Assembly: GCA_963765495.1 (NCBI GenBank)
Contig: CAVXWP010000008.1
Coordinates: 512,001-576,000 of the forward strand
Reading direction: 5' to 3'
DNA: 64,000 bases
DNA from: Blastocatellia bacterium
GTDB taxonomy: Bacteria > Acidobacteriota > Blastocatellia > UBA7656
Positions 1,998-8,612 of this stretch are shown here, one piece after another (position 1 is the stretch's first letter; every line of letters starts with the position of its first letter). A model generated the notes under the pieces. It saw only the letters and a program-made list of their open reading frames with translations, searched no databases and had not been told where the DNA came from. The position numbers and the translations under genes are program-made.

Positions 1998-3218
1998 ATG
2001 AAGATAGCCATTTTGACAAACGAATATCCTCCAAACATTTACGGGGGCGCTGGAGTCCATGTTGAATACCTGACCAGAGAACTTGCTGCGCTCGAAGGTT
2101 CGCGGCAGGAGTTGGAGGTTTTGTGTTTTGGTGACCAGAACGAGCATATTGAAAACATCGTCGTGAAAGGCATAAACCCGGGATTCGGACTCCCGGCTCA
2201 GGATACCAGACATAAAAAACTCTTCGATACTCTTTTGAGAGACATAATGATGGCAGGTACTGTCGGAAGCGTCGATATCGTCCACTGCCATACGTGGTAC
2301 AGCCACTTTGCAGGTTGCCTCGTTAAGCAACTTTACGGCTGCCCGCTCGTTTTGACTACTCACTCGCTCGAACCTCATCGCCCGTGGAAGACCGAGCAAC
2401 TCGGGTCTGCGTATAGGGCTAGCACCTGGCTTGAAAGGACGGCATACGAAAATGCCGACGGTGTTATCGCCGTATCATCTTCGATGAAAAGGGATGTTCA
2501 GGAACTTTACGGCGTTCAGCCGGATAAGATAAGAGTCATTTACAACGGTATAGACCTGAACCAGTACAGGCCAACACCGAATAACTCGATACTTGAAGAA
2601 TATCAGATCAACCCGAGTACACCCTTCATCCTTTTTGTAGGACGTATCACGCGCCAGAAGGGTATCATTCATCTGGTCAACGCGATCAAGTATCTGGCTC
2701 CTGGCATACAGGTCGTCCTGTGCGCGGGCGCACCCGACACCGAAGAGATTGGCAGAGAGATGGCCGACAAAGTAGCGCAGGCGCGAGGCGAAACCAGTAA
2801 TGAAATAATCTGGATTTCTGATATCGTTCCTAAAGACAAAATCATCAGCCTTTACACTCACGCATCCGTCTTTGTTTGCCCTTCGGTTTATGAACCCTTT
2901 GGAATTATCAACCTGGAAGCGATGGCCTGCGAGACTCCTGTTGTAGCTTCGGCTGTCGGGGGCATACCCGAAGTAGTCGTTGATGGGGAAACCGGAATAC
3001 TGGTTCATTTCGAGCAGGTTGGTCCAACCGATTTTGAGCCGCAGAACCCCGACAGGTTTTCGCGCGACCTGGCCTCGGCTGTCAATGAATTGCTTGGTTC
3101 GCCTGAAAGGATATCGGCGATGGGTCTGGCTTCAAGAAAGAGAGTTGAAGAGTATTTTAGCTGGACCAGCATAGCCCGCCAAACACTCCAATTTTATAGG
3201 GATATAACAGGGGCATAA
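1998..3218 (+). CDS. GT4-family glycogen synthase, GlgM/actinobacterial GlgA type (possible maltose-1-phosphate synthase)
   Basis: LTNEYPPNIYGGAGVHVEYL, HCHTWY, THSLEPHRPWKTEQLG, FVGRITRQKG, PSVYEPFGIINLEAMAC. Confidence 0.88.
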   Translation: MKIAILTNEYPPNIYGGAGVHVEYLTRELAALEGSRQELEVLCFGDQNEHIENIVVKGINPGFGLPAQDTRHKKLFDTLLRDIMMAGTVGSVDIVHCHTWYSHFAGCLVKQLYGCPLVLTTHSLEPHRPWKTEQLGSAYRASTWLERTAYENADGVIAVSSSMKRDVQELYGVQPDKIRVIYNGIDLNQYRPTPNNSILEEYQINPSTPFILFVGRITRQKGIIHLVNAIKYLAPGIQVVLCAGAPDTEEIGREMADKVAQARGETSNEIIWISDIVPKDKIISLYTHASVFVCPSVYEPFGIINLEAMACETPVVASAVGGIPEVVVDGETGILVHFEQVGPTDFEPQNPDRFSRDLASAVNELLGSPERISAMGLASRKRVEEYFSWTSIARQTLQFYRDITGA

Positions 3219-3222
3219 CGGA

Positions 3223-3280
3223 ATTTCCAGTATCCGCCGATTTTGGGTCATCAAATCTCAAATCGGCGGATACTGGAAAT
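3223..3280. terminator. Perfect 21-bp inverted repeat between convergent genes (probable bidirectional terminator)
   Basis: ATTTCCAGTATCCGCCGATTT ... AAATCGGCGGATACTGGAAAT. Confidence 0.7.
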
Positions 3281-3284
3281 CAGA

Positions 3285-4382
3285 TCATTCGAAGACTCCC
3301 TTTATAGACACTTCGGCCTGAGGCATTTCGGGATCATTTGTTTCGATCACGAGCTTCCCATCGAAGTTACCGCGCGACTTGATCATCGCCTTATCTATCG
3401 AGAGATCTATTTTGTAGGACTCTCCGTCCTTCTCCGTGACAACATTCCATTTAATGAAAGGCAGGGTCGAGGTAACGCTCTTTATCTTCAATCCGGTTTC
3501 ACGAAGCCTGCGAACGTGGATGGATGGGAGGTTCCCTACGTTATTCTCGCCTTCCATCGGCATCTTCGGCAAAATTATCGCGCCGGGCGACACAAATACG
3601 AGAGGGAGAATCTTTACCTCAAGCGGTATGTCCATCTCAGGTTGCGCCTTGTCATCGGTTATGATCTTAAGCGTCTGAGTGTGCTCGCCAGGTTTGAGCG
3701 AAGGGTTTGTAGAGATGTTCAATTCATATCGTTTCCCATCTTCGATAGGCTGAAAATCTACGTAAAAATTTGTCCCGCCGGCCTGAACATCCTTTACATG
3801 GACAGATTTCCCCTCGGCCGCTCGCAAGTACATCGTTATTCGCGTGCTGGTTCCGAACAGGGCTGCCGAGACCCATCGGTCATTCGGCCAGATGCTTAAA
3901 GGGCCAGATGGTTTCGCAGGCGGCAGCGGCGGCGCAGGCGCAGCCTTTACCGCGTTAGGCGAATCAGGTGGCTTCTCAAATTTGAAGTAGGCCCGCAGAA
4001 CCAGATTAAACTGCAAGTGATCGGGATCATTGGTAGTTACGCTGGCAGACTTAGCAACCTCTCCGTTGTAGCCCGCCGTATGCGCGATTGCAAGTGTGAT
4101 TTTTCCCTCCTGACCAGGAGCGACGACTCCATCAAAGTCGGTTGCCGTGCATCCTCAGCCAGGTTTGACTGCTTTTATTATCAGGTCCGCCTTCCCTTTA
4201 TTCTTTACTTTGAAAGAATAAGAGAGCGATGAACCACTCTTCACTTCCCCGAAGTCATGAGTAAGGGAATCAATTGAGAGCTTTGGCAAATCCTCGCCCT
4301 GTGACTCCTTCCCCCTCTCTTGCGCGACAGCGACGAGGGCAAATGAAAGCAGGAGAACCAGCGAGATAAACGTTCTCTTCAT
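3285..4382 (-). CDS. Secreted DUF1573 / Ig-like repeat protein read through an in-frame TGA (probable selenoprotein, 365 aa)
   Basis: ORFs 4155..4412 and 3285..4016 share a frame. The 46 codons after TGA 4155-4157 are open: AVKPG-TGA-GCTATDFDGVVAPGQEGKITL...VTTNDP, matching the DUF1573 CGCT...PG.EG.I...TND pattern. Signal peptide MKRTFISLVLLLSFALVAVA. Confidence 0.75.
4112..4154 (-). promoter_or_regulatory. Candidate bacterial SECIS hairpin 3' of the in-frame UGA
   Basis: UGA GGAUGCACGGCAAC-CGACUU-UGAUG-GAGUCG-UCGC: 6-7 bp upper stem with an apical G about 21 nt after the UGA. Confidence 0.5.
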
Positions 4383-4542
4383 ATTTCGCACCCCATTAGA
4401 AATTGAATTCATAAGCGCCGAAAGTTTAACAGATCACCAAAAGGATGTCAGCAATCAATTGAATGAGAGTGACATTTTTTGAGGTGCCTCGACATACGGG
4501 CCTGATGCGGCGCGGCCAACTGATGTGGTATTGTTAGCTCCG

Positions 4543-5529
4543 ATGAGAGTTATTCCACTGGGAACAAGCTCAGGCAAGCCTACACTGAAGCGCAATGTCA
4601 GCGCGCTGGCGGTAGCTCGCGAAGGCGAGTGGCTTCTGTTTGACTGTGGAGAGGCCACACAGATGCAGATCGCAAGGGCCGGTCTGAGTCATTCTAAGCT
4701 TTCCGCTATCTTTATAACGCATCTGCACGGAGATCATTTCAACGGGCTGTCGGGTCTACTCTCTACAATGGGATTAGACAACAGGACACATCGCCTGACG
4801 CTTGTCGGGCCACGCGGCATCGGAGATTATCTGAATACCCTTTCGCGGCTGAAGATCCTCTATGTGAATTACCCGCTCGTCTTGAGGGAGTACGATCCCA
4901 GCGACTATACGAGAGATGAGAAGGTGCGACAACCAAGATCACGAAGAGATCCGAAACCAGTTGATAGTGAGCCCTCATCAGGGCCTATTTACGTTTATGA
5001 GGAATCTGATTACACAGTATCAGCGATGCCACTTGATCATCGCATTTTTGATCTCGGCTACAGGATCGAAGAGCGTCTGAAACCGGGCCGATTCAATCTT
5101 GAGCATGCTCGCGCTCTTGGTATACCCGAGGGGCCTTTGTTTGGACAACTGCAATCAGGTAAAGAGGTCCGGCTGGCAAACGGACGGCTCATCAAACCTG
5201 AACAGGTTCTGGGCGAACCCAGACCGGGAAAGTCAATCGCCTATTGCACCGACACACGCCCCTGTAAGGCATCCATCGAGCTTGCGCGGAATGCTGACCT
5301 GCTCATCCATGAAGCGACATTCGATCAGGCGATGACGGCAGAGGCCGATCAGTATGGTCACTCGACCGCAGCCCAGGCTGCGAGTATCGCCCGAGAGGCC
5401 GAGGCAAAGCGGCTTTTGATAACGCACTTCAGTACGCGATTCCCCGACCCCGCGCCTTTACTGGAAGAGGCCCGCGTCGTGTTCCCTGAAACAATTCTGG
5501 CGCAGGATTTAACAGAGGTAGTCGTGTAG
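4543..5529 (+). CDS. rnz: Ribonuclease Z
   Basis: LGTSSGKPT, FDCGEATQ, THLHGDH metallo-beta-lactamase motif, exosite GIPEGPLFGQLQ, HEATF, GHST, THFS. Confidence 0.93.
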   Translation: MRVIPLGTSSGKPTLKRNVSALAVAREGEWLLFDCGEATQMQIARAGLSHSKLSAIFITHLHGDHFNGLSGLLSTMGLDNRTHRLTLVGPRGIGDYLNTLSRLKILYVNYPLVLREYDPSDYTRDEKVRQPRSRRDPKPVDSEPSSGPIYVYEESDYTVSAMPLDHRIFDLGYRIEERLKPGRFNLEHARALGIPEGPLFGQLQSGKEVRLANGRLIKPEQVLGEPRPGKSIAYCTDTRPCKASIELARNADLLIHEATFDQAMTAEADQYGHSTAAQAASIAREAEAKRLLITHFSTRFPDPAPLLEEARVVFPETILAQDLTEVVV

Positions 5530-5574
5530 TCGCAAGGCAAGGAAAATCGTTTTTGCTCGATAATATCCATCAAA

Positions 5575-5952
5575 ATGATCATCGCTATTGGAATAGATAT
5601 AGTAGAAATTTCAAGGATCGAAGAGACCATGGCCCGTCAGGGGGAAAGGTTTCTGAAACGTGTTTTCACATTGTCTGAAAGGGGCTACTGTGACGGTCGC
5701 TCCTCGCGGATTGCCAGTTATGCAGCAAGGTTTGCGGCAAAAGAGGCTGTTATGAAAGCTCTGGGCACGGGTTGGGACAAGGGGATAAGCTGGCAGGATA
5801 TAGAAGTCATTCGCGGCGAAAGCGGTCCCCCCTCTATACATCTGGCTGGTCTTGCGCTTGAGCGTTTCCATTCAGTTGGGGGAAAAAGAATTCACCTCTC
5901 ACTCTCACATTCTCGGGACACGGCCATAGCGCAGGTCATCTTTGAAACCTGA
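5575..5952 (+). CDS. acpS: Holo-[acyl-carrier-protein] synthase
   Basis: GIDIVEISR, AARFAAKEAVMKALGTG, HLSLSH. Confidence 0.95.
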   Translation: MIIAIGIDIVEISRIEETMARQGERFLKRVFTLSERGYCDGRSSRIASYAARFAAKEAVMKALGTGWDKGISWQDIEVIRGESGPPSIHLAGLALERFHSVGGKRIHLSLSHSRDTAIAQVIFET

Positions 5953-6068
5953 TCCCTTTCTTAAATTCACAGGGCAGACAAAATACGGAAAACTTGACCA
6001 TATTATGCTCTGTCGTTATTCTTCCAATCGGTCTGCCAGCTCACATCAGTCATTATTTTTGGTATGTA

Positions 6069-6953
6069 ATGAAGAGATCATACTCGACAACCGAGCTTGC
6101 GAAGATGTGGGATGTAAGCGAGTCCACGATAAAGCGGTGGGCAGATGCAGGAATGTTGAAATGCCGGAAGACGGTCGGAGGACACAGGAAGTTTGATCTT
6201 GAAGGGGTAAATGAATTCCAAGCGAAAACCGGATTGTTTCCCTGCAAATTCTCGATTGAGAATTGTCAGGAACATGTGGCCAGAGAGATTGCCCGCATAG
6301 AGTCCCTGATCGCGGTTTCCGATTTTTCCACGCTCAAAGATACATACCGTCAAGCCGCGCTCGGCGGGAGATGCGATCTCACATCGACGATGCTCAGGCT
6401 TGCGACTCAGCAAGGAATCTCTTTCATAGACATCATAGAGAAGATCATTCGTCCGGCGATGATGGAAATAGGAGAGATGTGGCGCGCTGGAAAGGTGCAG
6501 GTCTACGAGGAGCATCTGGCTACATTTGCGACTATCCAGGCGCTCTCCGAGCCTTCTGCAACACTCAGCGAAAATTCCGATCCCGATCAGATTGCGATTG
6601 TGGGATGCTCAGAGAGCGAAATTCATCAAATGGCTTCGCTGATCGTTGGGCGCGTTCTGGAGGAAGCGGGCTGGTCGGTGATAGACATGGGCCCACACAC
6701 TCCGCTCTTTTCGTTTGCAGATGCCATCAACAGGCTAAAGCCTGGTCTCGTCTGTATCTCGATTACAATGATAGATAATCTGGAACGAGCCGCCCGAGAT
6801 TATGATGTCCTTCGACGTGCCGCCTCGGCCAACAACACAAAGATAATTCTGGGTGGAAAAGCCTTGAGCGATGAGGGAGCGCGAACCAGATTCCAGGGAG
6901 CCGCCTACGCTACCGATCTATACGAACTGATGGAGATTTTACAAAAGCTTTAG
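6069..6953 (+). CDS. MerR/excisionase-type HTH regulator with cobalamin-binding domains (CarH/LitR-like)
   Basis: STTELAKMWDVSESTIKRWAD...TVGGHRKF HTH; W-x9-EH (WRAGKVQVYEEH); SESEIHQM B12 His loop; Rossmann tail ILGG. Confidence 0.82.
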   Translation: MKRSYSTTELAKMWDVSESTIKRWADAGMLKCRKTVGGHRKFDLEGVNEFQAKTGLFPCKFSIENCQEHVAREIARIESLIAVSDFSTLKDTYRQAALGGRCDLTSTMLRLATQQGISFIDIIEKIIRPAMMEIGEMWRAGKVQVYEEHLATFATIQALSEPSATLSENSDPDQIAIVGCSESEIHQMASLIVGRVLEEAGWSVIDMGPHTPLFSFADAINRLKPGLVCISITMIDNLERAARDYDVLRRAASANNTKIILGGKALSDEGARTRFQGAAYATDLYELMEILQKL

Positions 6954-7082: not shown

Positions 7083-8612
7083 TCAAACAACGGCAATAAG
7101 TTCGCGCAGCGATAGGTCGGATTCGAGGTTGCGGAGCTTTGCGAATGCGGCAGCCTCGATCTGTCTTACGCGTTCTCTGGTTACAGACAAATCCTGGCCA
7201 ATCTCTTCCAGTGTCCGAGGCTCGGTCCCCGCATCCAATCCGAAATGCATTCGCAGGATTTTTGCTTCACGCGGTGTGAGCCGTGCAAGCGCTCGTTGTA
7301 TGGCATCTCTTCGGGATCGATCAACCGCGGAAAGGAAGGGGTTGGCGCTATTTCCGTCATCAATGAAGTTGACGGCTGTTTCCCCGTTATCGTTGGCCGC
7401 GACATCGAGCGGGATCGTATGGTGCGCATAGCCACGCGCTTCCTTAACTCTCTCAGCCTCAATATCGAGCCGTTCTGCGATCTCTACATTCGAAGGCTCC
7501 GATGCATTCTCGTCGCTCAGCGCGCGAGCAACCCGACCAACTCTGTTTATCAGGGTCAACTCGGAGGCGGGAAGCCTTACAACCCTGCTTTGTGTGTCGA
7601 GCGCACGAGCCATTGATTGTCTGATCCACCACATAGCGTAAGTGGAAAATCGAAATCCCCGTCGCCAGTCGAATTTCTCTACGGCGCGCATCAAGCCTAC
7701 GTTACCCTCCTGAATGAGGTCGAGGAAAGGCAAACCTCGGCCGGAAAACTGGCGAGCTACGGAGATCACAAGGCGCAGGTTAGAGACCGTCATGCGTTGT
7801 TTTGCCGCGTAGAGCGCCGCTGCTTCCCTCTTCACAAACCTGGCTAATTTATCAAGCCCTGCGGGCGTGGCCAATCGCTTATCAATGACTCTCTTGAGCG
7901 CGGCTTTGAGCTCGAAACCTTCAAGGTCGGCCTCAACCATGTCTACGGAATCGGTCGCCTCGCCTTCACGCGAAGCAAGTATCGCAGCCCGCTCAAGAAG
8001 CAAAGCCAGGCGGCGTTCGGTGGCTGGTGTAAAGGTGATCACTTTGAGGGCACGTGAAAGAAGTACCCTCGATCTCGATTGACTTTCGATGCTAGGTTTT
8101 TGATTCCGCGCTCTTCTAACAGATTTGCTTTGTCTTAAAGGACCAGTGGTTCGGGCAGAAAGAGAATTTTGGAATGCGGCAGCTACTAATTCAAGCGCCT
8201 TCAAAGCCTTTTCAGAAAGAGAGGCATCGAGGTCGGATGCAACATCTTCTGAAATACTTTCTACTATCTCAGCAATATTCTCTCCCTTTAAGAGAAGCGA
8301 ATCTTTGAGATGGAGCGAAAATTCAGCCACTATAGGCGAATGCGACAACAGCCGCATTAACCGCCCGCGTGCTCTTTCTATCTTCTTTGCTGCCTCGATC
8401 TCCCCGGACGCGTCAAGCATCGGGGCGCGGCTCGCCTCCCTCAAATAAAGTTTTAGCAGGTCCGTCTTATCAATCTCTTCTGCCTTTTGAGTCTCTTTCT
8501 CTTCGAGAAACTCATCTTCCTGCTCAAAAAAATCGGATCCTCCAAGGTGGGAATGAGCATCATCATACTGATTCTGGTCTCTTGCTGTCATAGCTCGTGG
8601 GTCCTCCGGCAC
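7083..8612 (-). CDS. RNA polymerase sigma-70 factor, RpoD/RpoS-like group 2
   Basis: Region 1.2 LKLYLRE; [45 protein letters not shown]; region 4 [20 protein letters not shown]; no region 1.1. Confidence 0.9.

Follow-up and report, generated by a model that had tools for sequence, protein, structure and literature searches.

Locus and reading frame

The window is the whole 64,000-nucleotide stretch of DNA analysed, from a soil Blastocatellia genome (Acidobacteriota). On its minus strand, from 4382 to 3285, a single TGA (4157..4155) breaks an otherwise open reading frame. The coding features are as follows.

3288..4382, minus strand: coding sequence of a 365-aa selenoprotein through read-through of one UGA; ATG at 4382, where orthologues begin at an aligned Met; last sense codon ending at 3288
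4155..4157, minus strand: UGA, Sec codon 76, the U of U-G-C; of 27 orthologues, 26 have TGA here and one has TGC
3285..3287, minus strand: true stop TGA; orthologues terminate at the same place

In the list of open reading frames the gene appears as an 85-aa ORF (4412..4155) and a 243-aa ORF (4016..3285) in a common frame. An earlier reading of the sequence only had proposed two same-frame ORFs parted by one TGA, without stating the strand; this is borne out on the minus strand, and read-through of that frame reproduces the predicted VKPG-U-GC-TATDFD within a product of 365 aa. The downstream ORF had also been said to lack a plausible start of its own, and the earliest ATG, GTG or TTG 3' of the TGA is the TTG at 4016, 46 codons on and inside a domain.

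Family membership and orthologues

The product matches PF07610 (DUF1573) with 83.5 bits (cut-off 26.1) over residues 36-121, a domain that spans the UGA. The NCBIfam model NF041425, “OS_HP2 family (seleno)protein”, gives 101.7 bits where its cut-off demands 100, a marginal score obtained only with U read as C, and 80.6 bits against the raw DNA. OS_HP2 is defined by Sec in a U-x-C motif aligned to Cys of homologues; the motif is U-G-C in 26 and C-G-C in one of the 27 orthologues. Judged by these matches, the gene belongs to an established selenoprotein family, OS_HP2/DUF1573, tabulated since 2007 as pfam07610 with a UxC/UGC motif (PMC1976440, PMC2398784, PMC9312934, PMC13188914). The first examples given are those of symbiotic Deltaproteobacteria in a marine worm (Zhang & Gladyshev 2007, PMC1976440). 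The legend of Figure 5 of that paper covers five families, OS_HP2 not among them, and in its accessible part no OS_HP2 SECIS drawing was found. The locus had been presented as a “hidden” selenoprotein split by standard annotation; ORF calling does split the frame, but the family is catalogued, in print since that year and included in NCBI annotation models, so that the biological news is modest.

With the rest of the family the gene shares the DUF1573 domain, the U-G-C aligned to C-G-C of Cys homologues and the in-frame UGA followed by hairpins. It differs in coming from soil Blastocatellia and in having two extra Ig-like domains outside the family models, and its lineage has a further two Sec paralogues, in one of which U and C are adjacent. 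New here are the combination of a signal peptide with three Ig-like domains, the two further Sec paralogues per Blastocatellia genome, and a second hairpin, H2, whose loop (GGUC/GGUA) starts 39-42 nt past the UGA.

The orthologue set comprises 27 sequences, its own included, at 35-53% protein identity; full-length orthologues are present in all 24 genomes of the same family and in two of three genomes of family f5. The internal column is TGA in all but one of them, which has TGC (Cys). This single Cys orthologue reads S-C-G-C-T and a Cys paralogue in the same genome S-C-G-C-T-T, confirming that the TGA falls on the first Cys of C-G-C-T. The proposed pairing of Cys and TGA recurs in a named set that partly overlaps the orthologue set, where 80 motif instances at 79 of 80 loci hold 76 TGA and 4 Cys codons; the motif expression skipped one of 21 class B loci (L064), one of 21 class C loci (L082) and one of the 80 named loci (L174). 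While the terminal stops of 26 orthologues use all three codons (8 TGA, 12 TAA, 6 TAG), the internal site is TGA or a Cys codon and never TAA or TAG. The 289 codons downstream are under clear purifying selection and all three domains are conserved among the orthologues; varied stop codons with a decayed downstream part, named beforehand as evidence against recoding, are absent.

Selenocysteine machinery of the genome

The sequence-only reading had called for a search of the genome for selA, selB, selC and selD, and all four were found over their cut-offs: selA with 566 bits, selB with 374 and selD with 386, each without an internal TGA, and a tRNA-Sec with anticodon tca (71.1 bits). In the same genome FdhA and two CxxU AhpD-like genes have one in-frame TGA apiece, each followed by a canonical hairpin at a UGA-to-loop distance of 17-18 nt; the FdhA hairpin loop is GGUCU. 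A second hairpin is also present after the UGA of FdhA. A search of the genome with PF10262 (Rdx/SelW-like) gave no match.

In all likelihood the TGA truly encodes selenocysteine, within a secreted protein of three domains. The whole reading, an intact Blastocatellia selenoprotein gene of the OS_HP2/DUF1573 family whose UGA is read as Sec via an adjacent RNA element and whose product is an exported Se-S redox protein, is given a probability of about 0.92. Under this reading a single intact, monocistronic gene would encode an exported 365-aa protein, with UGA codon 76 decoded as Sec through the genome's own SelA, SelB, SelD and tRNA-Sec. Decoding would be steered by an RNA element within the CDS just 3' of the UGA, formed by the adjacent hairpins H1 and H2, of which H2 would bind SelB and H1 would serve as a folded spacer.

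RNA element downstream of the UGA

4124..4140, minus strand: hairpin H1 (CGACUU/GAGUCG), 7-bp stem, loop GAU, 21 nt past the UGA; covariation at pair 18-40
4105..4122, minus strand: hairpin H2, 5-bp core stem, loop GGUC, 39 nt past the UGA; pairs 44-57 and 45-56 covary

H1 is the hairpin of the earlier reading, which had placed its apical G about 21 nt after the UGA. It is present with that spacing, but alone it is not significant against shuffles: it folds at -6.0 kcal/mol, and 10 of 200 shuffles are equally good. The 63-nt single-sequence fold is likewise not significant (z = -0.60; 47 of 200 shuffles fold as well). H2 alone folds at -7.9 kcal/mol, and H1 and H2 together in a 58-nt fold at -17.2 kcal/mol. 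Since these single-sequence statistics are weak, the case for the hairpins is a comparative one, made by codon conservation and covariation.

Over the 17 codons past the UGA (13 columns) the normalised codon entropy is only 0.34, compared with 0.77 over the 123 columns elsewhere (p = 6e-5, Mann-Whitney). The H1 codons GAC, AAA and GTC are fixed among orthologues, as are the H2 codons CCT, CCT and GGT, the latter contrary to the gene's usual preference for CCG and GGC. Among 64 Sec forms drawn from three paralogue classes, pairing is seen in 88.5% of cells, compared with 27-54% when the partners are slid, and the covariation score is 0.246 vs 0.085 in shuffles, a value reached in none of 500 shuffles; much of the covariation tracks paralogue class, and the cell counts therefore overstate the number of events. 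At H1 pair 18-40, alignment A1 has CG in 26 sequences, GC in 19 and UA in 8. The H2 stem, of 5 bp in the gene itself, reaches 6-7 bp in most orthologues, and its loop GGU[AC] is kept in nearly all 64 sequences. Six Sec forms without pairs in a rigid H2 count refold into register-shifted hairpins with 6-nt loops, so that the rigid count understates H2. Of the four Cys forms, three encode the same peptide with codons that disrupt H2; an H2-like hairpin is retained in Cys form L139. Because the H2 codons are fixed against codon preference and these three Cys forms break the hairpin, a purely protein-level cause of H2 is ruled out.

The bacterial SECIS model in the legend of Figure 2 of PMC13188914 has an apical loop of 3-9 nt, an upper stem of 4-16 bp, 16-37 nt from UGA to apical loop and a minimum free energy of at most -7.5 kcal/mol. 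Loop and stem sizes agree for H1 (3-nt loop, 6-7 bp) and H2 (4-nt loop, 5 bp). The distance range includes H1 (19-21 nt over the sequences) and is exceeded by H2 (39-42 nt) by 2-5 nt, whereas the folding energy lies below the limit for H2 and above it for H1. An early G in the loop is found in H2 nearly everywhere (GGUC/GGUA) and in H1 of the gene itself (GAU), not in classes B and C; neither hairpin conforms to every rule.

Predicted from these patterns, H2 is probably the SelB-binding hairpin. The opposite assignment, in which H1 is the SelB-binding bSECIS and H2 either has an accessory role in pausing or stability or simply follows from conservation of the peptide P-P-G-K/Q-E-G, is credible but somewhat doubtful. 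It agrees with the position of the H1 loop, within the 16-37 nt rule and near the 17-18 nt of FdhA and the AhpD-like genes, with the G (GAU/GAC) that opens this loop in the gene itself and most class A orthologues, and with the H1 covariation. Against it, the H1 loop varies across classes (GAY, CACGA, CCCGA in class B, ACUUUCC in class C), with the early G lost in B and C, the fold of H1 alone is weak, and the near-constant GGU[AC] of H2 resembles the GGUCU of FdhA.

A bacterial SECIS just 3' of the UGA had been expected, and a conserved, covarying RNA is indeed there, but the SECIS is probably not merely H1, and H2, of the two hairpins the more strongly conserved, had been missed. An Rfam scan of 3000..4700 gave no bacterial SECIS match; its three matches were all far below gathering scores and all lay on the terminator hairpin described below.

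The canonical bacterial SECIS is exemplified by the E. coli fdhF type. Like it, the present element lies within the CDS directly 3' of the UGA and has a stem-loop, whose apical loop opens with G in nearly all cases for H2 and in the gene itself for H1; unlike it, the element has a pair of conserved hairpins where the canonical form has one, the SelB-type loop is 39-42 nt from the UGA and the hairpin at canonical distance has a non-conserved loop. Recoding thus seems to be signalled by tandem hairpins, an arrangement outside the standard search model. It is tentatively suggested that Acidobacteriota OS_HP2 genes might possess a distinct bipartite bacterial SECIS, in which a SelB-binding GGU[AC] hairpin is shifted by about 21 nt by a conserved folded spacer hairpin. 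If so, with H2 outside the 16-37 nt range, SECIS-search programs would systematically under-call the family, and the tandem hairpin, should it hold, would be relevant to automated selenoproteome surveys.

Protein architecture and the U-G-C site

4323..4382, minus strand: putative signal peptide (residues 1-20), with KR, a hydrophobic core and A-V-A followed by Q
4020..4277, minus strand: domain 1, DUF1573/OS_HP2 Ig-like, residues 36-121, bearing U76-G-C78; PF07610, NF041425
3606..3905, minus strand: domain 2, beta-sandwich, about residues 160-259; AF2 strands 162-259, pLDDT about 90 or more, Ig/ASH-like by Foldseek
3291..3599, minus strand: domain 3, beta-sandwich, about residues 262-364; from conservation and AF2, ending, as does domain 1, in an ETNDP motif

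Sequence and model both favour the signal peptide and Ig-like fold that had been proposed. Among orthologues, A20 is invariant and Q21 at least 90% conserved, and the AF2 model (overall pLDDT 87) has three beta-sandwiches and a lone helix of low pLDDT at residues 2-23, in the signal-peptide region; both support export as a predicted property of the protein. The U-G-C triplet lies in a turn joining two strands of domain 1 in the model. Domain 2 had no family match, and a sequence search of the PDB with the orthologue profile gave no match to any solved chain. Foldseek returned only generic Ig/cadherin/ASH matches, including HYDIN/ASH-type, with no functional or enzyme-like lead; among them is PDB 2qsv from P. 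gingivalis, of unknown function (E = 1e-9). PF22544 is matched with 66.5 bits. Ig-like domains of the HYDIN/ASH/VesB type (PF22544, PF15780) share the beta-sandwich, the best Foldseek matches being ciliary central-apparatus Ig domains, but they are structural or binding domains without Sec or known catalysis.

By analogy with selenoproteins in general and with C-x-C chemistry, the U-G-C in the domain 1 turn would most likely serve as an extracytoplasmic selenenylsulfide (Se-S) redox centre. An alternative in which the site binds soft metals or metalloids (such as Cu, Hg, Zn or As) in a protein secreted for binding or adhesion, and is not a catalytic redox centre, is rather unlikely. The binding/structural Ig/ASH fold, the lack of an enzyme-like match and of a nearby thioredoxin-like partner, and the metal-related selenoproteins with Ux(x)C-type motifs in review tables suit a metal site; metal-resistance and transport genes are, however, not conserved beside the gene, and most characterised selenoproteins are oxidoreductases (PMC9312934). 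The function of DUF1573 with its U-G-C site is an experimentally approachable question.

Other readings of the TGA

That the TGA is a real stop without selenocysteine, in a pseudogene, between two genes or through a sequencing error, is very improbable: ordinary ORF calling divides the frame and single-sequence hairpin statistics are weak, but the TGA keeps its column in 26 of the 27 orthologues, which are of different genera, selection acts on the 289 downstream codons, 46 codons without a start follow the TGA, the Pfam domain spans it, and a DNA contig of one public sequencing run (3470-4192) is identical across it, though it probably derives from the source sample itself and is thus no independent evidence. 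In a second sequencing run a contig extends to the TGA, which sits only 3-5 nt from the contig end, and it was therefore given no weight; no RNA run was listed as containing the sequence. Reading of UGA by non-Sec means (Trp or Gly assigned throughout the genome, or near-cognate read-through) is scarcely credible, as nothing specific speaks for it, although an open frame under a chosen code does not prove that code; the gene and seven orthologues end at TGA, selA, selB and selD have none internally, the substitute residue at the column is always Cys and a dedicated RNA element follows the UGA.

Gene surroundings and distribution

3222..3281, minus strand: 22-bp perfect stem-loop directly past the stop, between convergent genes; -38.3 kcal/mol, z = -8.6, none of 200 shuffles as good
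4423..4451, minus strand: promoter-like site CTGACA, 17 nt, TAAACT, with TG; consensus match alone, 2 sites found against 1.5 expected

The stem-loop is a probable transcription end or RNA-stability element, and the promoter a weak candidate. Six of 10 loci share a divergent housekeeping cluster (MBL/RNase Z-like, ACPS, B12-MerR, sigma-70) and the downstream neighbour varies; no redox or thioredoxin-like partner and no conserved metal-resistance or metal-transport gene was found nearby in the 10 loci. Gene context was dropped as a functional clue, the neighbours being housekeeping or variable.

A reading of raw sequence without tools can thus find a true selenocysteine codon, and the locus is a well-controlled annotation example for Acidobacteriota, where ORF callers split such genes. 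In a sample of this abundant soil phylum an in-frame TGA is present in 39 of the 134 domain matches, pointing to many DUF1573 selenoproteins that are predicted to be exported. Blastocatellia genomes hold three Sec paralogues in all, classes B and C being additional; one Sec paralogue, with an adjacent U-C motif, scores under the family cut-offs and is beyond the reach of current family models.

Reading frame and family assignment

An ordinary ORF listing yields two ORFs in one minus-strand frame, of 85 aa (4412..4155) and 243 aa (4016..3285, TTG start), the split by a single TGA that the sequence-only reading had described. Translation of 4382..3285 with TGA as U gives an uninterrupted frame of 365 residues, and the proposed VKPG-U-GC read-through is seen in the peptide ...AVKPG-U-GC-TATDFDGVVAPGQEGK... 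around the internal codon. The downstream ORF was said to lack a plausible start of its own; the first candidate 3' of the internal TGA is a TTG 46 codons on. A Pfam DUF1573 hit of 83.5 bits covers residues 36-121 and spans the TGA without a break. The open frame, the lack of a nearby start and the domain match therefore confirm the original observation at these coordinates.

4157..4155, minus strand: internal UGA, codon 76 (translation)
3287..3285, minus strand: terminal UGA (translation)

The protein scores 101.7 bits against NCBIfam NF041425, 'OS_HP2 family (seleno)protein' (cut-off 100). Table 2 of Zhang & Gladyshev 2007 (PMC1976440) lists OS_HP2 with two Sec sequences from Olavius symbionts, and a table of the 2008 GOS paper (PMC2398784) lists 'OS_HP2, pfam07610, UxC', giving 2 homologues with Sec and 354 with Cys. 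The interpretation as a selenoprotein is right and the finding real, with a probability of about 0.92 that the UGA encodes Sec and the gene belongs to OS_HP2. The idea of a hidden, new class has to be given up: the kind was already catalogued, in the literature since 2007, and the gene, which shows the testable features of OS_HP2 membership, adds a member to an established selenoprotein family. A full-text literature search found no paper dedicated to DUF1573 function. In the passages found, an OS_HP2 SECIS is neither drawn nor described, though supplements may do so; the Fig. 5 legend of PMC1976440 covers five other families.

Conservation of the recoded codon

The read-through protein was searched against 41 genomes (its own and 40 relatives) and matched in 28, with full-length orthologues in 24/24 genomes of the same family and 2/3 genomes of a second family, f5. 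When the best frame was taken from 27 loci (L026-L052), TGA fell exactly at the U76 column in 26. The sole exception, L041, has TGC and reads S-C-G-C-T, which bears out both the expected Cys/TGA pairing and the placement of the TGA on the first Cys of the DUF1573 C-G-C-T motif. Orthologues are 35-53% identical to the window protein. The terminal stops of the 27 aligned genes are mixed (8 TGA, 12 TAA and 6 TAG; one gene is cut by a contig end), thus the specificity for TGA, rather than TAA or TAG, lies at the internal site and not at the terminal one. A decayed, pseudogene-like tail is ruled out, since conservation extends over the 289 codons 3' of the UGA.

A second sample comprised 80 loci from public species-representative genomes, mostly titled Blastocatellia or Acidobacteriota MAGs; four are Terriglobia, and a few bear titles such as 'uncultured Clostridia' or 'Heliomicrobium'. 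All but one of these loci, 79, gave the motif (80 instances: 76 TGA, 3 TGC, 1 TGT), a count that is not independent, as the sample partly overlaps the orthologue set and several named contigs are from the genomes already searched. One named MAG contig (L139) carries a Cys form and a Sec form about 1.2 kb apart (motifs at 3216 and 4408), perhaps the result of a recent duplication in which Sec gave way to Cys.

Across the phylum, an OS_HP2-like domain was detected at E ≤ 1e-10 in 75 of 151 sampled Acidobacteriota genomes, and 39 of the 134 listed matches hold one in-frame TGA, counted regardless of position; the tallies include an unpublished genome (G063) with one match and no stop. Sec forms are therefore common in Acidobacteriota, which suggests that OS_HP2 proteins make up a large share of acidobacterial selenoproteomes.

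Selenocysteine machinery and paralogues

As the sequence-only reading had proposed, selA, selB, selC and selD were looked for in the genome of the window, an assembly of 7.3 Mb in 17 contigs that is 97.9% complete, and all four were found. The tRNA-Sec matches Rfam RF01852 at 71.1 bits and is called tRNA-SeC, anticodon tca, by ARAGORN; selA (566 bits), selB (374 bits) and selD (386 bits) lie above curated cut-offs and have no internal stops. The Sec-decoding trait is in use elsewhere in this genome, with one in-frame TGA each in FdhA (formate dehydrogenase alpha subunit) and two CMD/AhpD-like genes.

C10:124691-127717 (L177): FdhA, recoded
C7:195422-195661 (L184): CMD/AhpD-like, C-x-x-U context, recoded
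C1:824468-824641 (L185): CMD/AhpD-like, C-x-x-U context, recoded

Besides class A (the window gene and its orthologues), two further Sec paralogue classes, B and C, occur in the lineage and also in this genome. Class B proteins (~185 aa) have a lipobox-like LAAAC and a U-G-C motif; those of class C (about 407-430 aa) have an adjacent U-C motif.

C9, ~496.2-496.8 kb (L024:1474-2028), minus strand: class B gene, 185 aa, carrying U-G-C, a long linker of low complexity and a LAAAC signal like that of lipoproteins
C2, ~534.5-535.7 kb (L025:817-2037), minus strand: class C gene, 407 aa, with a three-domain layout like that of the window protein

With 20 further loci of each class fetched from relatives (21 each in all), class B comprises 18 TGA and 2 TGC, class C 20 TGA, and the motif was not found in one locus of either. 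Class B retains the tandem hairpins of the window gene, with compensatory changes. In the class C gene Sec and Cys are adjacent (…SPV-U-C-SAVDF…) instead of forming U-G-C. This U-C paralogue scores below the family cut-offs (NCBIfam 41 bits against 100; Pfam also under its cut-off), so annotation pipelines would probably miss it, and its absence from current models makes it of specialist interest.

Recoding signal

The hairpin claimed after the UGA is present (H1), and a second one (H2) follows it.

4140..4124, minus strand: H1, stem of 7 bp, two of them G-U, closing a GAU loop that begins 21 nt 3' of the UGA
4122..4105, minus strand: H2, stem CUCCU/AGGAG, loop GGUC, -7.9 kcal/mol, loop starting 39 nt after the UGA

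Taken by itself, H1 is unremarkable against shuffles (-6.0 kcal/mol; 10/200 fold as well), and the 63-nt fold has a z of -0.60. Comparative data show that both hairpins are selected at the RNA level. Over the 13 conserved degenerate columns within the 17 codons 3' of the UGA, normalised codon entropy among the 26 Sec orthologues is 0.34, compared with 0.77 over 123 such columns elsewhere in the gene (Mann-Whitney p = 6e-5). Codons fixed there (GAC 26/26, AAA 22/22, GTC 26/26, CCT 25/25 and 25/26, GGT 25/26) run contrary to the gene's preferences elsewhere (AAG, CCG, GGC).

The two-hairpin structure, drawn from the fold of one member, the window gene, was counted in 64 regions of Sec form: 26 from class A, 18 from class B and 20 from class C. 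Paired cells amount to 88.5%; sliding the 3' partners by 1-3 columns lowers this to 27-54%. Covariation scores 0.246 versus 0.085 ± 0.008 in shuffles (reached by 0/500), but much of the covariation tracks paralogue class, therefore independent events are fewer than cells; MAFFT also puts the class C H1 5' arm in the wrong place. Pair 18-40 of H1 is CG in 26, GC in 19 and UA in 8 regions; in H2, pair 44-57 is CG 30, AU 18, GC 5, and pair 45-56 is GC 32, UA 25, AU 2. Within class B alone, H2 stems read CCGCCU/AGGCGG, CGGCCU/AGGCCG, CAGCCU/AGGCUG and CGACCU/AGGUCG. Three of four Cys forms (L114, L144, L171) have H2 broken by their codons while the peptide V-V-P-P-G-K/Q-E-G stays the same or nearly so; the fourth, the L139 copy beside a Sec form, keeps an H2-like hairpin.

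In the published bSECIS model (Fig. 2 legend of PMC13188914), a loop of 3-9 nt with a G in its first two positions tops a stem of 4-16 bp and lies 16-37 nt from the UGA, and the MFE is at most -7.5 kcal/mol. H2 is stable enough, and its GGU[AC] loop hardly varies, but this loop lies 39-42 nt from the UGA, beyond the model's range. FdhA and the two CMD/AhpD-like genes were folded as an internal control; each forms one strong hairpin with its loop starting 17-18 nt after the UGA (GGUCU in FdhA, GGG, GUU), therefore the organism's SelB sees G-first loops. The FdhA loop is close to the GGUC of H2. In structures of SelB-SECIS complexes, SelB contacts a looped-out G and U of the apical loop. H2 is favoured as the probable SelB site, with H1 acting as a compact folded spacer that would hold the effective distance short; such a tandem signal, outside the standard SECIS search window, is of specialist interest. 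That H1 is itself the SECIS, as originally claimed, and H2 an accessory element is a less likely arrangement: H1 is real and its spacing of 19-21 nt fits the model, but it is too weak alone and its loop varies (GAU/GAC, CACGA, CCCGA, ACUUUCC), with no G near its start in either class B or class C. In FdhA a second hairpin also folds, 42 nt out, with loop GGC (single-sequence fold).

Protein architecture and function

Domains were delimited from an AlphaFold2 model (mean pLDDT 87) and an alignment of 25 orthologues, the 27 minus two truncated at contig ends. The claimed signal peptide probably corresponds to an N-terminal helix (2-23) of the model, at whose end A20 is invariant and Q21 nearly so; this would be a signal-peptidase I site of typical form.

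Strands 35-134: domain 1, DUF1573 (model and alignment)
Residues ~140-160: proline-rich linker, low confidence in the model
Residues 162-259: domain 2, beta-sandwich (model)
Residues 262-364: domain 3, beta-sandwich (model)

Neither beta-sandwich is matched by a Pfam or NCBIfam model; a T-N-D-P-like motif closes both domain 1 and domain 3. U76-G-C78 is modelled in a turn between strands 67-74 and 79-83. Foldseek matches in the PDB were HYDIN/ASH-type Ig domains from proteins of the ciliary central pair, together with cadherins, adhesins and the uncharacterised P. gingivalis protein 2qsv, with no enzyme among them, and a profile search of PDB sequences gave no match. The neighbourhoods of 10 related loci hold no redox or metal partner gene. 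Function is therefore argued only from the chemistry of the exposed U-G-C. C-x-C motifs are redox-active mimics of disulfide isomerases, and U-G-C most likely forms a selenenylsulfide redox centre that acts at the cell surface or in the periplasm. Alternatively, it may bind a soft metal.

Gene surroundings

The selenoprotein gene is monocistronic, convergent with a GT4 glycosyltransferase gene and divergent from an MBL/RNase Z-like gene.

3222..3281: perfect 22-bp inverted repeat/hairpin directly after the stop, in the gap where the selenoprotein and GT4 genes converge (-38.3 kcal/mol, z -8.6)
4525..6953 (plus strand) and 7083..8612 (minus strand): MBL/RNase Z-like, holo-ACP synthase, B12-binding MerR-type (CarH-like) regulator and sigma-70 genes

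No clear U-tract accompanies the 22-bp hairpin, and weak Rfam miRNA-family matches proved to be this hairpin. Among the 10 related loci the opposite flank is variable, and the divergent MBL, ACPS, B12-MerR and sigma-70 cluster, kept in syntenic order in 6, appears unrelated to the selenoprotein.
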